Shown here: positions 9,036 to 53,969 of the stretch, in pieces
How the letters are laid out: the number at the start of each line of letters is the position of its first letter
Numbering within the stretch: the first letter of the stretch is position 1
Assembly (NCBI GenBank): GCA_964583485.1
Contig: CAZOVC010000002.1
Location: 2,959 to 66,958 of the forward strand
Source: an uncultured Candidatus Saccharibacteria bacterium
GTDB taxonomy: Bacteria; Patescibacteriota; Minisyncoccia; Minisyncoccales; GWA2-38-27
Direction: 5' to 3'
DNA length: 64,000 bases
Position numbers and translations under genes: made by a program
The notes under the pieces: model-generated
What the model was told of the DNA's origin: nothing
The model's input: the letters and a program-made list of their open reading frames with translations, nothing else
Database searches by the model: none

Positions 9036-10270
9036 ATTTTAAGAAAATCTACTATTTTTTTAGCCTGTTTTTTTGATATATTTATATGAGTAGGAAGATT
9101 TAATGTTTGCTTTGACAATTTTTCTGCCTTTGGGCAGGTGCCAAGCTTATAACCTACTCTATCTAAATTTGTATCATCTGGAGCAATCGGGCTTGTGTAC
9201 CAATCCCCTATTAAGATATTTTTTCTCCACATCTTTTTAATTATTTTATGAGCTTTGCTATGTTTTATTGTAAATCTTAAAAATATAGAATTATCTTTTG
9301 GAGGAAGTTTAAAAGAAGTATTTTTTAGATTTTCAAAAAAGAAATCAGCAATTTCCTGTCTGTGTTTATTAAACCTCTCTAATTTCTTAAATTGATTTAA
9401 GGCAAGAATTGCCAAGGCATTAGGCATTCTTTTTGGAAAATATGACGGCTTTCTGCCCTGTTTTTCCTTCCAATGGACTGCTTTAGACATAAAATGAAGC
9501 CATTGGAATATAACTAAGACATACTTCCCATTTATTCTATAACTGGGCAGAATAAAGCTCATAAATATGGGATGTAATAACTGTTGTTTAATCCAAAAAT
9601 ATGATGGATAACTAAACTTGTCCTGAGCTTGCTGAAGTTTTTCAGCAAGCGAAGGGTCATTAGTAACAACCATTCCTCCATATACAGAAGAAATTACCTT
9701 ATCTCTGGAAAAACTAAAGAAAGCAGCTTTACCAAAACTACCTACTTTTTGATTGTAGTATTCAGCTCCTAACGCATGAGCGCAGTCCTCAATTAATATT
9801 AAATTATTCTCTTGGGCAGTTTTTCTAATTTCATTCATATTAGCAGGAATTCCAAATGTATGTTGAACCATTATAGCTCTACTTTTATCACTTACCTTAT
9901 TTCTTAAATCTTCTATATCAATATTAAAAGTATTTTCATCGCAATCAACATAAACTGGCTTTAAGCCATTCCATAAAATAGGATTTACAGCAGCATTGCA
10001 AGTAAATGCCTGAAGCAAAACTTCGCTTCCAGGTTCTAAATTAAGTCCTCTCAAAATAGCCATTAAGCAAGCTCTCCCGCTATTAAAAGCAAAAGCATAT
10101 TTTACACCTAAATATTTTTTAAACTCGTTTTCCAATTCTTCAATTGCCTCGCCGCGTCTCCACTTCCATAGACAAAAAACCAATTTCAAAGCTAGCCAAA
10201 TATCATCTTTTTCTACATTTGGCGATAATGATATTGTAATTGGTTTAAGGTATTGACAAATTTTAAGCAT
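9026..10270 (-). CDS. DegT/DnrJ/EryC1/StrS-family PLP-dependent sugar aminotransferase
   Basis: FNSGRACLMA...SFSRDKVISS (PLP lysine), then YGGMVVTND. Confidence 0.7.
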   Translation of the reverse strand: MLKICQYLKPITISLSPNVEKDDIWLALKLVFCLWKWRRGEAIEELENEFKKYLGVKYAFAFNSGRACLMAILRGLNLEPGSEVLLQAFTCNAAVNPILWNGLKPVYVDCDENTFNIDIEDLRNKVSDKSRAIMVQHTFGIPANMNEIRKTAQENNLILIEDCAHALGAEYYNQKVGSFGKAAFFSFSRDKVISSVYGGMVVTNDPSLAEKLQQAQDKFSYPSYFWIKQQLLHPIFMSFILPSYRINGKYVLVIFQWLHFMSKAVHWKEKQGRKPSYFPKRMPNALAILALNQFKKLERFNKHRQEIADFFFENLKNTSFKLPPKDNSIFLRFTIKHSKAHKIIKKMWRKNILIGDWYTSPIAPDDTNLDRVGYKLGTCPKAEKLSKQTLNLPTHINISKKQAKKIVDFLKIWK

Positions 10271-29847: not shown

Positions 29848-30033
29848 AAAAACCAAGGCAGAAATCTTATTTTTTGAATAAATCACAAAAAGCTCAAGTC
29901 AAACGATTTGAGCTTTTTCTTTTTTATATTTCTTATATTTTTTATATTTCTTTTCTATCTATATTCAATATATAATATATTCATATTCACTATATTAATA
30001 TTCACTATATTCAATTATTCAATTAAATTCTAC

Positions 30034-30063
30034 AAACTACTACACTACGTAGTGTTGTAGTTT
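30034..30063. promoter_or_regulatory. Near-perfect 30-nt palindrome aaactactacactacg|cgtagtgttgtagttt, upstream of the yerC-like gene
   Basis: A paralogous palindrome lies at 30662-30695, just downstream of the same gene. Confidence 0.45.
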
Positions 30064-30123
30064 ATGGAATTGTGTTACAATTAAATTATAATTAAATAAT
30101 TAATAAACAAAAATAAAAATAAT

Positions 30124-30630
30124 ATGAAAAAATACTCACAAATTTCAAACAAAGAAAAGAGTAATTTATTGCAAGAATTCTGCGAAGCAATTTCTGTTTT
30201 AAATAACCCAAAAGAAATAATGGACTTTATAACTGACCTATTAACAAAACAAGAAACTATAATGGTAGCTAAAAGAATTAAAATTGCAAAAATGCTAATT
30301 ATTGGAAAAGATTATCAAGAAATTCGGAATTCCTTAAAAACAAGCCCTGGTACAATATCTAAAATAAATCAATGGTTATTAGAATCAGGAGAGGGTTTTA
30401 GAATAATTGCGCAAAGAACCAAAAGAAAAGAATCTAAAAAGATAAAATCGGAATATAGTGAATTAAAAAAACTCAAAAGACGATACCCTATTATGTTTTG
30501 GCCAGAACTTTTAATCAAAGATATAATAAAAACAATGAACGCAAAGCAAAAAGATAGAATTAAAAAATCTATAAAAAATTTAGATCGTAAATCTGAAATA
30601 TACAAACAAATAGATAAAGCTTTAAAATAA
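30124..30630 (+). CDS. Trp-repressor-like DNA-binding protein (YerC/YecD family)
   Basis: LLTKQETIMVAKRIKIAKMLIIGKDYQEIRNSLKTSPGTISKINQWL resembles the YerC/TrpR HTH. Confidence 0.55.
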   Translation: MKKYSQISNKEKSNLLQEFCEAISVLNNPKEIMDFITDLLTKQETIMVAKRIKIAKMLIIGKDYQEIRNSLKTSPGTISKINQWLLESGEGFRIIAQRTKRKESKKIKSEYSELKKLKRRYPIMFWPELLIKDIIKTMNAKQKDRIKKSIKNLDRKSEIYKQIDKALK

Positions 30631-30661
30631 CAAGTCTCAAAAAAGTAAACATAAAAGTTCC

Positions 30662-30695
30662 ACAAACTACTGCACTACGTAGTATAGTAGTTTGT
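30662..30695. promoter_or_regulatory. Second copy of the caaactact..cactacgtagt..agtagtttg palindrome
   Basis: Read from the sequence. Together with 30034-30063 it flanks the yerC-like gene. Confidence 0.45.
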
Positions 30696-30775
30696 TACAT
30701 TTTCTTATAATTGTAAAAAAATGTGGAAAGATGAAACATAGAAAAAATAAGAGATTATATAAAAAAATAAGAAAT

Positions 30776-30895
30776 ATGGTAAAATTAAAGTATGAAAATT
30801 AGTATTAAAAATACTATGGTAAAATTAAAGTATGAAAATTAGTATTAAAAATACTATGGTAAAATTAAAGTATGAAAATTAGTATTAAAAATACT
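30776..30895. repeat. Three perfect tandem copies of a 40-bp unit (atggtaaaattaaagtatgaaaattagtattaaaaatact), the last one overlapping the start codon of the 30872 gene
   Basis: Units start at 30776, 30816 and 30856. Each carries the ATG and first 8 codons (MKISIKNT) of the downstream ORF. Confidence 0.9.
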
Positions 30896-31150
30896 GGAGA
30901 AAATACAGTAAACTTAATGAGAAAGATTGGTTATCTTTTTCATAAAGAAAATCAATTTGTTAGACCTTTGGAAAGAAGCGGTTATCCAAGATTTCATTTA
31001 TATATCAAAGAAAACAAAGAAGAAATAATTTTTAACTTACATCTTGACCAAAAAAAACCACTATATAAAACAGCTCATGATCACGCAGCGGAATATGAAG
31101 GAGAAGTCGTTGAAGCCGAAGCCCAAAGAATAAAACAAATATTAAGATGA
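30872..31150 (+). CDS. Hypothetical small protein
   Basis: 92-aa ORF. Overlaps the next gene by 4 nt (ATGA). Confidence 0.45.
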   Translation: MKISIKNTGENTVNLMRKIGYLFHKENQFVRPLERSGYPRFHLYIKENKEEIIFNLHLDQKKPLYKTAHDHAAEYEGEVVEAEAQRIKQILR

Positions 31151-31815
31151 CCAATAAGAAAATCGCTCAAATATTATATAAAATAGAAGAACTTTTGAAT
31201 ATAAAAGGAGTGGCTTTTAAGCCGCAAGCTTACCATAAAGCAGCTCATGTTTTAGAAAACTTAAAACAAGACGTTTCCGAGATATATAAAAAGAAGGGAA
31301 GAAAAGGATTTGAAGAAATTCAAGGCATAGGCAAAAGCATTGCTAAAAAGATTGAAGAATATATTAAAAAAGGACAAATCAAATATTATACAGAACTAAC
31401 AGAAGAAACAGCTATTCGCCAGATTGTCACTTTTTATTTCAAAACCAAGGGATTGAGTTTGGATGAAATTAAAAGAGATGCTAAAAAAAGAAAAATAGTT
31501 TACTCAAGATTCACCAAACCAGCTAAACAACTTTTAGAATTAGCAGGTTCTGTAAAAAAAGCCAAGCAGGCAATTGATAAAGTAGCTAAATGGGCAAAAT
31601 CAAGGAATTTGGATTATGCAATAGAGACAGTTTTCAAAAAATGGCTGGAATTAGACCGTTTAAAGCCAAAAGAAATAGTTAAAAAGCCGTTCTTCCAGGG
31701 GAAGCCAATGATTTGGAGCCAAACAAAAAGAAAATGGTATGTAATTAGCGATGATGGTGAATGGTTGGAATTCGCTGGAAAAGAATCTGAGATTATATGG
31801 CGAATTGTGAAATGA
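31147..31815 (+). CDS. Pol X (DNA polymerase beta)-like N-terminal 8-kDa/HhH protein without a polymerase palm domain
   Basis: IAQILYKIEELLNIKGVAFKPQAYHKAAHVLENL ... IQGIGKSIAKKIEEYIKKGQI fits the Pol beta lyase and HhH fingers pattern. Only 222 aa. Confidence 0.45.
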   Translation: MTNKKIAQILYKIEELLNIKGVAFKPQAYHKAAHVLENLKQDVSEIYKKKGRKGFEEIQGIGKSIAKKIEEYIKKGQIKYYTELTEETAIRQIVTFYFKTKGLSLDEIKRDAKKRKIVYSRFTKPAKQLLELAGSVKKAKQAIDKVAKWAKSRNLDYAIETVFKKWLELDRLKPKEIVKKPFFQGKPMIWSQTKRKWYVISDDGEWLEFAGKESEIIWRIVK

Positions 31816-31819
31816 ATTT

Positions 31820-32635
31820 ATGAAAACTATATTTTTAGGTAAAGGAGAATTTGGAGAAATTGTCCTAAAAGGGCTTATTGAAAACGGATATAAGAACCAT
31901 GTTTCGCTTCGCTCAACAGAACCTTGTAATTCTTTGAATTATAAGCCTGTTTTAGTTAATGACTTTAAGAAAATAAAAGAATTAAAGCCAGATTTAGTTA
32001 TTATTGCTTCTTATGGCAAAATTATTCCTAAAGAAATTTTAGAAATTCCTCAATACGGCTGTCTTAATCTTCATGGTTCTCTTTTGCCAAAATATCGCGG
32101 CCCCTCCCCTATTCAAACAACCATTCTTAATGGAGATAAAAAAACTGGAGTGACAATAATTTTAATGGATGAGAAAATAGATCATGGTGAGATAATTTCT
32201 AATTCCAAATTCCTAATTTCTAATAAAAAGATTACCTATCAAGAACTTAATAAAAAATTAGCTGGGTTGGGAGTAGAATTATTAATAGAAACTATTCCAA
32301 AATGGATAAAAGGGGAAATTAAGGCAAAACCGCAGAATCATTCAAAAGCAACTTATACAAAGATTTTGAAAAGAGAAGATGGAAAAATTGACTCGTCAAA
32401 ATCACCTGAAGAAATTGAAAGAAAAATCAGGGCTTTTAATCCCTGGCCTGGCACTTTCTTTTTTATTAAACATAAAGATAAAGTTTTAAGAGTTAAAATT
32501 TTAAAAGCTGATATTTCAAAAAATAATAAATTAATAATTAAAAAACTCCAGCCCGAAGGCAAAAAACCAATGACCTTTGAAGAATTTAAAAGAGGATATC
32601 ATTTTAATACAAGTAAGAATTTTTTGAAAGAATAA
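31820..32635 (+). CDS. fmt: Methionyl-tRNA formyltransferase (short)
   Basis: LVIIASYGKIIP ... NLHGSLLPKYRGPSPIQ (SLLP motif). Confidence 0.75.
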   Translation: MKTIFLGKGEFGEIVLKGLIENGYKNHVSLRSTEPCNSLNYKPVLVNDFKKIKELKPDLVIIASYGKIIPKEILEIPQYGCLNLHGSLLPKYRGPSPIQTTILNGDKKTGVTIILMDEKIDHGEIISNSKFLISNKKITYQELNKKLAGLGVELLIETIPKWIKGEIKAKPQNHSKATYTKILKREDGKIDSSKSPEEIERKIRAFNPWPGTFFFIKHKDKVLRVKILKADISKNNKLIIKKLQPEGKKPMTFEEFKRGYHFNTSKNFLKE

Positions 32636-33186
32636 CTAACATAAAACAGAGCAGCAAGCAATCCGCAAGTTCCAAACAAGATATCTTCCCAAAAATCAAC
32701 TTTTATTTCCTGCTTTGTGTCAAAAAACAGTTTTGTGCCAAACGCTTGATCAATATTATACTGCAATATCTCCCAAAGAAAAAGACAAACAAATAAAATA
32801 GCGAAAAGATAAAACAATAGTTTTCTCTTTTTAATTTCTTCTCCATTTATCCTCATAACAGGCAGCCAAAGCAATAAAAAGATTATTAAAGAAAAGAAAG
32901 CCACGGCAAAATGAAGAAATCTATCATATTCAAAACCAAGCTGATGAAGAATTAAACTGCCGGGAGCATTTGAAATAACTATAAAAAAAGCAAAATATTC
33001 AATTTTTTTAACCCATTCATTTTTAACAGTTTTCTTAATGTTTGCATCAAACTTATAAAAAAAACGAGGCAGAAGAATTAACAATATTACAATAAAGCCG
33101 TAGGAAATAAGAACAATGCCTCTGCTTTTTGTAAAAAGTTCAATTAAAACAGTCGCGATTGAAACGGTTAAAGAAGCGATAATCAT
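32599..33186 (-). CDS. Hypothetical polytopic membrane protein (VanZ-like?)
   Basis: 195 aa, 5-6 TM helices. Confidence 0.45.
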   Translation of the reverse strand: MIIASLTVSIATVLIELFTKSRGIVLISYGFIVILLILLPRFFYKFDANIKKTVKNEWVKKIEYFAFFIVISNAPGSLILHQLGFEYDRFLHFAVAFFSLIIFLLLWLPVMRINGEEIKKRKLLFYLFAILFVCLFLWEILQYNIDQAFGTKLFFDTKQEIKVDFWEDILFGTCGLLAALFYVSYSFKKFLLVLK

Positions 33187-33361
33187 AAAATATGTTTAAA
33201 CTAATTTTACTGCATATTTTTATTATAACATACTTTTTCTCATGGCTTTAATCTTCTACCCTGAAATAAAAAAGCAAGGAAAGAAGTCGGGAGCCACGCA
33301 ATTCCTGCTTTCTTACATTTGTAACTTTCTTACATTTGTAAGTCTCCCAAAATACTTCCTT

Positions 33362-33433
33362 CCTTGCTTATTGGAGGGAGATGGAATCGAACCATCGACC
33401 TGTCGTCTAAGACGACCTGCTCTCCCAACTGAG
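33362..33433 (-). tRNA. tRNA gene, 72 nt; anticodon loop reads UCUUAGA, so anticodon UUA (candidate ochre-suppressor tRNA); identity needs confirmation
   Basis: The minus strand reads GGGGGGA-TA-GCTC-AGTTGGGA-GAGC-A-GGTCG-TCTTAGA-CGACA-GGTC-GATGG-TTCGATT-CCATC-TCCCTCC-A. The acceptor stem pairs 7/7 with one G-U, the D stem is GCTC/GAGC, and the T arm is GATGG/CCATC with a TTCGATT loop. Position 33 is C and 27:43 is G:A, both unusual, so the anticodon register is uncertain. Confidence 0.7.
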
Positions 33434-33468
33434 CTATCCCCCCGATTTAAGGTACTACTACTATTATT

Positions 33469-33491
33469 ATTATAGCAATCTGATTATTCCT
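33469..33491 (-). promoter_or_regulatory. Consensus sigma-70 promoter on the minus strand (TTGACA, 16-nt spacer, TATAAT) about 25 nt upstream of the tRNA 5' end
   Basis: The minus strand reads TTGACAggaataatcagattgcTATAATaataatagtagtagtaccttaaatcGGGGGG. Confidence 0.55.
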
Positions 33492-33516
33492 GTCAACAAA
33501 TTTTTATTATAACACA

Positions 33517-33795
33517 TTATTTCTTTCTTATCTTAATTGCTTTTCCTTCAGTCAGGGCTTCAGCCACTTTCTTCCGAGCCGAAGTTAAAATTCGCTGAAG
33601 GGTGCTTTGGGAAACTTTCATTTTCTTTGCCGCTCCTTTTTGCTCTAAATCTTTCAAATCGCAAAGTCGCAACGCCTCCAGTTCGTCTATGGTTAAATCA
33701 ACCTCTTCCAATATAGATAAAGGCACTGCTCGGGGCTTAAAATAGACCACATCTGGATCAAATAATACTCTTCTTGGTTTTATTGGTCTGGCCAT
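33517..33795 (-). CDS. DUF134 (UPF0251) predicted DNA-binding protein
   Basis: MARPIKPRRV...EALRLCDLKDLEQKGAAKKMKVSQSTLQRILTSARKKVAEAL. Confidence 0.6.
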   Translation of the reverse strand: MARPIKPRRVLFDPDVVYFKPRAVPLSILEEVDLTIDELEALRLCDLKDLEQKGAAKKMKVSQSTLQRILTSARKKVAEALTEGKAIKIRKK

Positions 33796-34649: not shown

Positions 34650-35413
34650 CTTTTTTTAAAAATTAAAGAAATTAAAAATATAAAAGTTGAAGATAAAATA
34701 ATCAAGGGACCAGCTGAAAAACCTGTGAGTTTAAACAACAACAATCCAAAAATGGCAGAAATTATTCCTATTGCTAAGGCTCCGAAAGAATAATAAGAAA
34801 GAGTCCTCCCAAAATTATTTGAAGCAGAGGCTGGAATTACTAACATTGCCACCGTTAAAAGACCCCCTACTATTTTTACTTCCAAAGCAACAATTAAGGC
34901 AATAGAAGCTAAATAAATTAGATTATATTTTTTAACATTAACTCCTTCTACTTTTGCTAAATCTTCTGAAATTCCAGATAAAATCATCTTTGAGTAAATC
35001 TTTTTAATAATCAAAAAAACAATTATTCCTAAAATTACAGCGAGAATTGTATCAATCAAACTTATTTTGCTAATATCTCCTATTAATGCCTCTTCGGCTT
35101 GAGAAACTGGCAAAATTAGAAAACTAAGAGCAACGCCAGCAGCAAAGACCAAGCCAGTTAAAGCTTCCATCGGCAATTTTGTCTTGATTTCCAAAAGCCA
35201 GATTATAACAGCCCCGATGACTATGGTTCCTAATGCTCCCCAAAAAATATTGAAATGGTAAAGCAAAGCCAGAGCTGCCCCAGGTAAAGCCAAGTGCCCC
35301 AGCGGTCCTCCTATCAAAGCCATTCTTTTGGTGAGCATTAAAGAGCCCAAGTATCCTGCCGCTCCTCCAATGAAAATTACTGTAATTAAACTTAAAATAA
35401 ATTGAGAAAACAT
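34646..35413 (-). CDS. ABC-3 family metal (Zn/Mn) ABC transporter permease
   Basis: 255-aa polytopic protein of ZnuB/TroCD type. Confidence 0.7.
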   Translation of the reverse strand: MFSQFILSLITVIFIGGAAGYLGSLMLTKRMALIGGPLGHLALPGAALALLYHFNIFWGALGTIVIGAVIIWLLEIKTKLPMEALTGLVFAAGVALSFLILPVSQAEEALIGDISKISLIDTILAVILGIIVFLIIKKIYSKMILSGISEDLAKVEGVNVKKYNLIYLASIALIVALEVKIVGGLLTVAMLVIPASASNNFGRTLSYYSFGALAIGIISAIFGLLLFKLTGFSAGPLIILSSTFIFLISLIFKKR

Positions 35414-35444
35414 ATTATTTGAAAATTAAAAATTGAAAATTATT

Positions 35445-36149
35445 TTAGTGGGTATGTTCGTAAAATTTAATTTCTGTTCCATATAGTTTCTCTAAATTTT
35501 CTGGAGTTAAAATTTCCTTAGGAAGCCCGGAACAAATTGCTTTTTTATTTAGACACAAAACATTAGTAGAATACTTATAAACAATATTTAAATCATGAGT
35601 AATTAGCAAGATGGTCAAATTTCTCTCTTCCCAAAATTTATGCAAAAGAGAATAAATAGTTTCTTCTCCTCCGATATCAATTCCGGCGGTTGGCTCATCA
35701 AAAAATAAAACTTGAGGATTCCCTATTAAACTCCAGCCAATCAACATTCGCTGGAATTGACCAGAAGATAAATTTCCCGGGTCTTTCTCCAAAATTTTTG
35801 GATTTTCTAATCCTACCAATTTTAACATTCTAAGAATTTTTTCATCGGAACTTTCTTTAAATTTAAAAAACTCCTTTACTGAAATTGGTATTTCTTTAAA
35901 TTTTGAACGAGACAAGCGTTCAGGCAGATAACCAATCTTTAGACTTTCTGGTGATGTCCAAGAAATTTCACCCTGATAAGATATTAACCCTAGTAAAGCT
36001 CTAAAAAGAGTAGTTTTGCCAGCTCCATTTGGCCCTAAAATAGTAAAAATTTCTCTTTCTTTAACTTTAAAAGACAAATTCTCAATGATTTTCTCGTCAT
36101 CTAATTCCACATTCAAATTTTTTACTTTTAAAATTGAATTTTCTGGCAT
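35445..36149 (-). CDS. Metal ABC transporter ATP-binding protein (ZnuC-like)
   Basis: GPNGAGKTT Walker A and an LSSGQ signature. Confidence 0.75.
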   Translation of the reverse strand: MPENSILKVKNLNVELDDEKIIENLSFKVKEREIFTILGPNGAGKTTLFRALLGLISYQGEISWTSPESLKIGYLPERLSRSKFKEIPISVKEFFKFKESSDEKILRMLKLVGLENPKILEKDPGNLSSGQFQRMLIGWSLIGNPQVLFFDEPTAGIDIGGEETIYSLLHKFWEERNLTILLITHDLNIVYKYSTNVLCLNKKAICSGLPKEILTPENLEKLYGTEIKFYEHTH

Positions 36150-43515: not shown

Positions 43516-43544
43516 ATTATAAACCCATAACCATACGGTGTCAA
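43516..43544 (-). promoter_or_regulatory. Consensus sigma-70 promoter on the minus strand (TTGACA, 17-nt spacer, TATAAT) heading the minus-strand gene run from 43427 down to 33517
   Basis: The minus strand reads TTGACAccgtatggttatgggttTATAAT. Confidence 0.5.
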
Positions 43545-51611: not shown

Positions 51612-51682
51612 ATTTTTATTATATCAAAAAAGCGTCGAAATGGCGATTCTTTGTGGCCGATCGACCCCGAACAAAGTTCGAT

Positions 51683-51712
51683 GTCCTGGACGGGTACGGG
51701 TTTAGGACGCCA
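51683..51712. repeat. Direct repeat aaagttcgatgtcctggacgggtacggg (copy 1), recurring at 53822-53851; together with aggcctctcggtcg (51728 and 53749) it brackets the high-GC island
   Basis: 28 of 30 nt identical between the two copies. Both lie in GC-rich non-coding DNA. Confidence 0.45.
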
Positions 51713-51922: not shown

Positions 51923-52159
51923 CTAAATATCAAAATAACTGTCAATTTCTTCTCTCACTTCTTTAATCAGTTTTTTCTTTTCATCTTTCAATTCAAATGC
52001 TTCTTTTACCAATTTTGTAATTTTATCAATAGAATTTTTGTCTAAAATTGGTATTTTAAAATCAAGAAGACGATTTGAAATTGTTGGTATTGTTGATTGA
52101 ATTACAGTGTACTTTTCGCTTTGGCATCCGGCGACTTCTTTTATTGTTGGACTAAAAGG
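51923..52159 (-). pseudogene. Start-less C-terminal gene fragment (about 78 codons, ...IKEVAGCQSEKYTVIQSTIPTISNRLLDFKIPILDKNSIDKITKLVKEAFELKDEKKKLIKEVREEIDSYFDI*); probable remnant of a gene truncated by the GC-rich insertion
   Basis: Hand-translated from the minus strand. Host-like AT-rich codon usage. The open frame runs into the 52154-52241 hairpin with no start codon. Confidence 0.3.
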
Positions 52160-52241
52160 GGTCAGGTACCTTTTTTACCTTTTTTAGGTCTTCCCCTAGG
52201 ATTTAATGTTGAGTTAAAATAAAAGGTACCTGACCCCTTTT
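52154..52241. other. Large perfect hairpin: 21-bp arms aaaaggggtcaggtacctttt / aaaaggtacctgacccctttt around a 46-nt loop
   Basis: Read from the sequence. Lies at the junction between host-like DNA and the GC-rich segment. Confidence 0.5.
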
Positions 52242-52598
52242 ATTTTACACATCGTTGAAGTTGAAGTAGGGCGCGTTCGAGAAATCGCCATCAGCGTCAG
52301 GTTAATTGCCTCCACTCATCCATGTCACCAGACCGCGAAGTTTACTGCCTTAAGGATTATATCTTTTTGGTCTTGTATTTTATTCGGCAGCATCCCGCTA
52401 AAAGCGGGAACCTGCGCTAAGCAGAGGCAAGCAGTATCTCCTCAGCACAACACGCTCTTAGAAACCGTAGTCGCTAAGACTCTGGTTGCTTTTCTCCTAA
52501 AGAGAGAGTTCGGCGACAGCAATCCGTAAACTACTATGCATTAGCCTAAGCTCATTTATAAGTATATTGAATTCTAAAAAAGAAGCAAGTTTTTGAGA

Positions 52599-53578: not shown

Positions 53579-53969
53579 CGCCTCCTTTCTACCCTATAAT
53601 GTAGGGCTCTAAAGTAAACCTTATTTTCAAAGAACTTCACTATGTTATAATTATAGCAAACTGTCAAGAAAAGTCAAGGGTTTAGTAAAAAATTGGGATT
53701 TGAAATTCGATTAATAAAAAACTCGTAATTCGTTATTTCGTGTTTTTTTGAGGCCTCTCGGTCGCAAGAACCGAGCACCAGCCTGCTCTGGTGCTGCGAT
53801 TCGAACTGTCTCAAATTCGAATAAAGTTCGATGTCCTAGACGGGTATGGGGACATTTTTCTCGAACTTTTTCCAAAATATGAGGCGGATCGGTCTCTCGA
53901 ACCGCGCTCAAGGTAGCTGCGGGAACTGGAAAACGTTAGAAATTGTTTAATAGCAGATTCGCTGGCATT

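Follow-up and report, generated by a model that had tools for sequence, protein, structure and literature searches.

What does a tRNA gene with an anticodon complementary to a stop codon do in a bacterium that ends most of its genes in that very codon? The question is raised by one locus in a stretch of 64,000 nucleotides (hereafter the window), namely positions 2,959 to 66,958 of contig CAZOVC010000002.1 (assembly GCA_964583485.1), deposited as an uncultured Candidatus Saccharibacteria bacterium. The gene in question carries UUA at anticodon positions 34-36, cognate to UAA. The reading that we prefer, tentatively and stopping short of calling it probable, is that it encodes a lineage-specific alanine-accepting tRNA-Sup(UUA) with effectively a 4-bp anticodon stem, acting as a weak suppressor at most.

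The locus contains a real tRNA gene with its own promoter. When run on the whole 64 kb, ARAGORN returned a single tRNA (33372-33443, minus strand), labelled tRNA-Stop with the anticodon tta at position 34, as had been claimed in an earlier note on this DNA, which described it as the only tRNA in the window. The same 72 nt match Rfam RF00005 end to end, covering model positions 1-71 of 71 with 55.6 bits at a gathering score of 29 (E = 2.8e-09), and at minimum free energy (MFE) they fold into a cloverleaf (-31.1 kcal/mol, z = -3.0), which bears out the canonical cloverleaf of the earlier note as well. Its location needs adjusting: the tRNA does lie within 33362-33491, but it is on the minus strand, and this interval leaves out both the terminator and 5 nt of the -35 hexamer, which extends past its end. 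No tmRNA was detected in the window by ARAGORN or Rfam. The gene and the parts of its product are as follows.

33372..33443, minus strand: tRNA gene, 72 nt, no encoded CCA (ARAGORN, Rfam and MFE fold); full RNA sequence GGGGGGAUAGCUCAGUUGGGAGAGCAGGUCGUCUUAGACGACAGGUCGAUGGUUCGAUUCCAUCUCCCUCCA
Acceptor stem: G1-C72, G2-C71, G3·U70, G4-C69, G5-C68, G6-C67, A7-U66, with discriminator A73; 5′ strand GGGGGGA, 3′ strand UCCCUCC
D-loop: AGUUGGGA, including G18, G19 and G20
Anticodon arm: G27·A43 and four Watson-Crick pairs; loop U32 C33 U34 U35 A36 G37 A38 (UCUUAGA)
T-arm: GAUGG-UUCGAUU-CCAUC; variable loop AGGUC

Outside the anticodon arm, the molecule is canonical in its acceptor, D- and T-arms and in its variable loop. 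It has the 7-bp acceptor stem, 4-bp D-stem and 5-bp T-stem of a bacterial elongator tRNA together with a score above the family threshold, and, read against the Rfam alignment, the nucleotides engaged in tertiary interactions are complete (U8, A14, G15-C48, G18, G19, G53-C61, U54, U55, C56 and A58). The G·A at 27:43 is the sole non-standard pair flagged in that alignment.

Direct reading of the sequence shows that the body of this tRNA carries the alanine identity set, G3:U70, A73 and G20, along with the supporting elements G2:C71 and G4:C69. Among background tRNAs from the loci fetched for comparison, a G·U at 3:70 occurs in three of the four Ala tRNAs and is rare in other isotypes. Since the anticodon is UUA and not the NGC of alanine tRNAs, this is not a normal alanine decoder, and no normal tRNA-Ala has an anticodon arm related to its own. 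Because G3:U70, A73 and G20 all reside in the body, alanyl-tRNA synthetase (AlaRS) should charge the tRNA whatever its anticodon. In published experiments, alanine acceptor-stem elements moved into a foreign tRNA sufficed for charging by AlaRS, anticodon changes in E. coli tRNA-Ala barely altered charging, and an alanine suppressor with a UUA anticodon gave ~6% UAA readthrough (PMC11662663). The position of the identity set in the body would thus explain how so divergent an anticodon arm could go along with charging. It also changes the amino acid predicted to be inserted: the earlier note had suggested a Lys- or Leu-type tRNA; the identity set speaks for alanine instead.

A second alanine-type tRNA with an irregular arm turned up on a JGI contig from an organism unrelated to that of the window (Ga0164320_10031095; L119:1907-1982, minus strand). 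It has G3:U70, A73 and G20 and an encoded CCA, and its anticodon arm is also 16 nt long and AU-rich (UUUGA-AUUUAU-UCAAA, with a 6-nt loop), which ARAGORN reads as a 2-base anticodon 'tt'. This case may be a sign that the combination of an alanine body with an aberrant AU-rich anticodon arm occurs repeatedly, and the two tRNAs together could represent an unrecognised class of alanine-body tRNAs with non-standard arms.

The anticodon arm is one nucleotide short, with 16 nt in the A26-A44 interval and not the usual 17. Two registers are possible: G27 is mismatched with A43 and the variable loop has 4 nt, or G27 stays unpaired and the variable loop is the usual AGGUC. Both leave just four Watson-Crick pairs in the anticodon stem; in the former, G27·A43 tops the stem and the four pairs follow. 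The identity of the anticodon is less ambiguous. ARAGORN and the Infernal alignment, the latter with high posterior probability, agree in placing UUA at 34-36 of a 7-nt loop, and neither gave the sense anticodon that the earlier note had named as a refutation. Moreover, the 15 nt from 28 to 42 (GUCGUCUUAGACGAC) are perfectly palindromic about U35, because of which a symmetric loop of 3, 5, 7 or 9 nt always centres on UUA and a shifted sense register such as CUU is disfavoured. As both programs place UUA at 34-36 and the palindrome fixes the centre, the gene is still formally of the UUA (ochre) type, and the earlier note's assignment of that anticodon stands, as do its two caveats, C33 and the G:A pair at 27:43, both of which are visible in the Rfam alignment.

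In place of the normal 5-bp stem and U33-containing loop, the tRNA thus has four pairs and a C33 (U33 is present in 79 of the 89 comparison tRNAs), and its position 37 is a purine, yet a G, which is unusual after A36. According to the 'extended anticodon' concept of Yarus, U33, A37 and A38 favour efficient suppression, and in suppressor tRNAs both C33 and a G37 following A36 are unfavourable to efficient decoding. Here, A38 alone fits this favourable context, and C33 and G37 do not. Judged from these nucleotides, C33 and G37 probably make the UUA tRNA a weak suppressor or a non-decoder. The palindrome further permits pairing of 32 with 38 (U-A) and of 33 with 37 (C-G), which would close the loop, and in the MFE fold the arm is zipped up to 6 bp, leaving a loop of 3 nt.

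The tRNA is embedded in what looks like a complete transcription unit, the remaining features of which are listed below.

33469..33496, minus strand: sigma-70 promoter, -35 TTGACA at 33491-33496, 16-nt spacer, -10 TATAAT at 33469-33474
33444..33468, minus strand: 5′ leader region, 25 nt, from the -10 hexamer to G1 of the tRNA
33272..33369, minus strand: branched hairpin of 98 nt (RNAfold), starting 3 nt past A73; basal stem of 16 bp (AAGCAAGGAAGGAAGU / GACUUCUUUCCUUGCUU) with smaller hairpins inside
33308-33324 and 33325-33341, minus strand: identical 17-nt units in tandem (UUACAAAUGUAAGAAAG), within the hairpin and each with the palindrome UUACAAAUGUAA
33262..33271, minus strand: U-run UUUUUUAUUU, immediately after the hairpin, the putative T-tract of a terminator

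The promoter, which the earlier note had correctly recognised as TTGACA-16-TATAAT, scores 12/12 against the consensus and has TG just before the -10 hexamer. Five perfect consensus promoters (TTGACA-N16/17-TATAAT) are present in the window, where shuffled sequences led us to expect ~0.15, and the organism therefore uses promoters of this kind. They lie at 10253 (+), 24076 (+), 43544 (-), 2622 (-) and, for the tRNA, 33496 (-); downstream of the promoter at 43544 are two small genes rich in Gly and Arg, of which one is DUF5320-like. From the predicted start site, the transcript would have a short 5′ leader of ~18 nt, to be removed by RNase P. At the other end, the hairpin and the U-run look like an intrinsic terminator and 3′ trailer. 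RNAfold gives -77.6 kcal/mol (z = -5.25) for the 231-nt transcript region and -41 kcal/mol for the hairpin alone, which had been overlooked in a simple terminator scan because its loop is larger than the limit of that scan.

Searching the trailer against Rfam at a permissive threshold yielded chance-level matches only. Its repeat unit (TTACAAATGTAAGAAAG) holds a 12-nt palindrome, and no other close copies of the 17-nt repeat occur in the window. A mini-ORF (open reading frame) suggested by AUG-UAA motifs and a Shine-Dalgarno-like run in the trailer was dropped, as nothing beyond the palindromic repeat backs it.

The window has a G+C content of ~33%, homologues of the neighbouring proteins carry the names Parcubacteria or Nealsonbacteria, and exact copies of these proteins are found in several JGI metagenomes; the host belongs to the low-GC bacteria of the Parcubacteria type and uses the standard code. 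Under the standard code, 67 non-overlapping long ORFs fill 87% of the window and end in TAA in 37 cases (55%), in TGA in 21 and in TAG in nine, in line with the earlier remark that genes here routinely end in TAA. A reassigned stop would be depleted at gene ends and found in frame inside genes; TAA is instead the commonest stop, and it serves as a stop codon in the window. Same-frame open stretches joined by one stop include four TAA cases. One of them consists of two unrelated adjacent genes, as judged by gene order and Pfam, another lies in a different frame within a longer ORF, and the two that were translated turned out to be a separate small gene beside its neighbour and apparently non-coding sequence. 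A further in-frame stop follows within 20 codons in 32 of the 37 TAA-ended ORFs. By Pfam, the neighbours of the tRNA are housekeeping, metal- or Fe-S-related genes.

The tRNA, its promoter and the hairpin recur together in six JGI contigs, which are 100% identical to the window over the tRNA. Around this unit, the seven contigs, all from one species, differ at a single nucleotide polymorphism, and it lies downstream of the terminator. The only measurably diverged strain (L006) differs from the window mainly in a cluster at 35216-35459, 1.8 kb off, and nowhere near the tRNA. This 244-bp tract, situated at an ABC-transporter gene junction, holds 57 of the 65 differences between the two and bears the signature of a recombination tract. 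Since the contigs are identical near the tRNA and their differences are distant, these population data are uninformative on selection.

To look beyond the species, we fetched eleven genomic contexts of relatives through homologues of the DUF2238 neighbour and of the ParA/Fe-S neighbour; eight of them retain one flank of the junction, and three more distant ones (L106-L108) retain neither. On the DUF2238 side, relatives with 79-84% protein identity keep the downstream gene order, and upstream of DUF2238 three of these four (L105, L110 and L111) have prfB-ftsE-ftsX-tRNA-Gln(CUG), the fourth (L109) a pilin-like gene. The closest DUF2238 relative (87%), of which 174 nt of upstream sequence could be compared, is without the tRNA and the hairpin there, and the distant ones (60-73%) have no tRNA and neither flank in common with the window. 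On the ParA-like/DUF134 side, relatives with 84-86% identity keep the gene block and have no tRNA after DUF134; in one of the loci (L120, Parcubacteria DG_72), DUF134 is followed immediately by a large serine recombinase and HTH genes. A BLAST search with the segment from promoter to hairpin against all fetched loci produced generic D-arm matches only. The tRNA therefore sits at a rearrangement junction (33186-33520) between two synteny blocks, and, because relatives on both sides of the junction are without it, the ~250-bp unit of promoter, tRNA and hairpin is, on comparison of these gene orders, a species-specific insertion at a synteny breakpoint.

Taken as an alanine-accepting tRNA-Sup(UUA), the gene would have arisen or arrived recently in one Parcubacteria-type species and would be transcribed independently from its own promoter, after which RNase P would trim the 5′ leader, CCA would be added and AlaRS would charge the tRNA irrespective of its anticodon. 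On the ribosome, the UUA anticodon may then read UAA, and probably UAG, as alanine. Decoding would be poor, owing to C33, G37 and the 32-38 and 33-37 pairs able to close the loop, and it is because of these features that weak suppression at most is to be expected. Weakness would in turn make a strongly promoted copy tolerable where 55% of the long ORFs end in TAA, and backup in-frame stops close behind TAA in an AT-rich genome could make the remaining readthrough affordable. The intact core, the identity elements, the perfect promoter and the dedicated terminator argue against simple decay.

Several observations weigh against this reading. C33, G37 and the short stem argue against efficient decoding, and in the folding model the probability of a closed C33-G37 pair is 0.98, the top value among the 89 comparison tRNAs. 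We had entertained loop closure as decisive proof of non-function and dropped it, given that a 33-37 pairing probability above 0.5 is reached by 16% of ordinary tRNAs; for this reason, the predicted closure is to be taken as a caution and as weak evidence. The UUA tRNA is absent from all eleven relative contexts, including the equivalent sites in the eight that retain a flank. With one species and no informative variation near the tRNA, there is no evolutionary support for function, and the restriction to that species, combined with the loop defects, speaks against an important decoding role. No convincing TAA-interrupted gene, or other need for TAA readthrough, was found in the 64 kb, and an active suppressor would be costly where TAA is the main stop. 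The general importance of the case is limited accordingly to one gene in one uncultured species, as yet with no evolutionary support.

The same points lend themselves to the main rival account, in which the gene is a decaying or non-decoding paralogue of the tRNA-Ala type, duplicated or transferred, maybe still transcribed, the arm of which was scrambled and shows UUA by accident. An arm lacking 1 nt, in which G27 is bulged or mismatched with A43 and which has C33 and G37, is what such a history might leave behind, as is the perfect 15-nt palindrome zipped up in the MFE fold; the confinement to one species at a synteny breakpoint fits as well, and the alanine-type tRNA with a defective 6-nt loop mentioned above indicates that such derivatives do arise. 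Against this, the molecule is flawless outside the anticodon arm in its tertiary nucleotides, stems and identity elements, random decay would not have spared a 12/12 promoter and a strong terminator of its own, and closure of the loop is, as noted, common enough among ordinary tRNAs to carry little weight. We consider decay unlikely, if worth serious attention. That conservation extends to every feature required for folding, processing and AlaRS recognition, with the divergence confined to the part that AlaRS ignores, could also, together with the strong promoter, point to an alanine carrier or tRNA mimic working outside decoding, be it as a donor for cell-wall or lipid modification, as a decoy for an anticodon nuclease or toxin, or as a regulator titrating AlaRS. 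tmRNA and the staphylococcal non-proteinogenic tRNA-Gly are precedents, being charged tRNAs or mimics that serve purposes other than decoding. Pfam, however, identified no Fem/MurM-type transferase, aminoacyl-lipid synthase, cyclodipeptide synthase or toxin gene in the 20 kb around the tRNA, and conservation ends at one species, which makes a carrier role improbable. A bolder reading holds that the bacterium keeps a strongly expressed Ala-tRNA(UUA) with a weakened arm on purpose. It might bring about a low level of UAA/UAG readthrough, by which proteins throughout the proteome gain short C-terminal extensions, or, alternatively, act as a dedicated alanine donor or tRNA decoy outside normal decoding; this, too, we regard as a long shot.

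Two further explanations concern the anticodon and the code themselves. A misregistered sense tRNA, such as a Lys(CUU) tRNA with its anticodon at 33-35 or one in some other shifted register, might be suspected since CUU is contained in the loop, the arm is short enough to leave some register ambiguity, and the closest full-length matches are Lys(CUU) and phage Arg(UCU) tRNAs; these matches run through the common D- and T-arms, and the comparison set is biased. The agreement of ARAGORN and Infernal on UUA and the symmetry of the arm about U35 oppose it, as does the acceptor stem, with G3:U70 where the compared Lys tRNAs have G3-C70, and we deem it highly improbable. Still less credible is stop-codon recoding, whereby TAA would be a sense codon in the host or, along the lines of the earlier note's hint at phage-derived DNA, the suppressor tRNA would be the remnant of a recoded phage or mobile element. 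The position of the tRNA at the junction of two synteny blocks and the large serine recombinase that follows the same DUF134 gene in Parcubacteria DG_72 would suit a mobile origin, and phage-borne suppressor tRNAs are well known from the literature cited below. With 87% of the window coding under the standard code, TAA as the commonest stop and the same-frame ORF pairs across TAA being separate genes or non-coding sequence, the host version is nevertheless close to refuted. As to phage, Pfam revealed no phage or mobile-element genes flanking the tRNA within ±10 kb, and pattern scans of IMG/VR retrieved no related tRNA. To our knowledge, the recoded phages described so far reassign TAG or TGA, not TAA.

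Placing the alanine-accepting tRNA-Sup(UUA) among known systems helps to define what is new about it. The E. coli ochre suppressors, supG/supL from tRNA-Lys, supC from tRNA-Tyr and supB from tRNA-Gln, are single-base anticodon mutants of resident tRNAs that have U33 and a modified A37 and insert Lys, Tyr or Gln; their UUA anticodon reads both UAA and UAG, and they are tolerated only because suppression is weak. The tRNA described here, in contrast, is a separate gene with a non-standard arm and is predicted to insert Ala. Its body resembles that of the tmRNA tRNA-like domain, in which alanine charging is likewise based on G3:U70 and no anticodon is used (charging being a prediction for our tRNA); tmRNA differs in having no anticodon arm, a tag reading frame, pseudoknots and a need for SmpB, whereas our tRNA is a complete 72-nt cloverleaf. 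With the UGA-reading tRNA that has a shortened stem it shares the loss of the top anticodon-stem pair, a feature linked to altered stop-codon decoding. That tRNA relies on near-cognate pairing; ours is cognate to UAA, and a short stem would be unneeded for recognition.

Engineered alanine suppressors (PASS-tRNAs, PMC11662663) are similar in that G3:U70 and A73 make them AlaRS substrates regardless of the anticodon, but they were designed, with optimised arms, and the arm of this natural tRNA is suboptimal. The suppressor tRNAs of recoded phages (Borges et al. 2022) also have anticodons matching a stop codon; here, there is neither a phage context nor are there in-frame stop codons. A further counterpart is tRNA-Sup(UUA), which a survey of 42,109 bacterial genomes treats as an established class (Fakih et al., NAR 2026; PMC13092985). 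In that survey, 4-bp anticodon stems are given for 20.5% of tRNA-Sup(UUA), which is among the types most often showing them, predicted suppressor tRNAs are reported as sporadic in ~0.3% of standard-code genomes, and the text consulted gives no functional data for the class. A chromosomal UUA tRNA, UAA still being a stop and an unpaired top stem pair are common to that class and to our gene; what sets the latter apart is the alanine-type body, the combination of C33 and G37, the perfect promoter and the long structured trailer. On this basis, the tRNA belongs to an already described kind, with the alanine identity as the new element.

If active, it would represent an ochre suppressor that inserts alanine naturally, in a genome where TAA ends most genes. 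It would show to what extent the arm of a stop-reading tRNA can be weakened (C33, G37 and a 4-bp stem) and thereby become tolerable, and would offer a natural template for the alanine suppressor tRNAs now engineered for therapy. If inactive, it would illustrate that 'tRNA-Sup' calls in metagenome-assembled genomes (MAGs) can be alanine-type derivatives with anticodon-independent charging and that such calls are no evidence of recoding.

Scans of larger collections returned no orthologue beyond the seven contigs. The pattern GAGC-N8-TTA-N6/7-AGGTC-N3-GGTTCRA matched 98 sites in GTDB species genomes, none of them related, and a search of JGI metagenomes for an alanine-type D-arm followed by TTA and AGGTC gave two matches and no orthologue, the source samples seemingly being outside that collection; one of the two is the alanine-type tRNA with a 6-nt loop (L119) described above. 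Five patterns (D-arm with TTA, the exact anticodon arm, the alanine D-arm with a 16-nt arm, the 3′ half and the 5′ half) found nothing related in IMG/VR. BLAST detected no match in E. coli genomes and only generic matches of 79% among GenBank phages, to T4-like phage tRNA-Arg. The best phage match, with 79% identity, is an annotated tRNA-Arg(UCU) of Klebsiella phage JIPh_Kp122 and related Jiaodavirus phages (L117:300-373), which itself has the alanine identity elements G3·U70 and A73.

The GTDB scan brought up two other groups of tRNAs. Many loci from Actinomycetota MAGs (e.g. L021, L025, L038, L066, L077 and L083) have the loop CUUUAAU, to be compared with tRNA-Lys(UUU) CUUUUAAU, and are labelled 'Lys|Stop (tt)' by ARAGORN; they are probably homopolymer deletions in long-read assemblies and not real suppressors. 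The other group is a UUA tRNA family with the canonical loop CUUUAAA (U33 and A37), common to many filamentous cyanobacteria, e.g. GCUUACAUACUAGCUCAUUGGUAGAGCAUUUCUCUUUAAAGAAAAGGUCGCGGGUUCAACUCCUGCGUAUGUGC. Its members, from Microcoleus and other Oscillatoriales (L007, L011, L016, L035, L051, L054, L072, L073, L082, L088, L094, L096 and L099), look like a conserved ochre-type tRNA.

Elsewhere in the window, the G+C content drops to 0.274 within 30001-32000, where the GC and AT skews flip sign; this block consists of plus-strand genes (Trp-repressor-like, HHH_8 and fmt). Further along, two copies of a 33-nt direct repeat (51668-51700 and 53818-53850, 91% identical and 2150 bp apart) flank a segment with a G+C content of 0.456, as compared to ~0.33, and are possibly the boundaries of an inserted element. 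At 52153-52242 there is a perfect inverted repeat of 22 nt.

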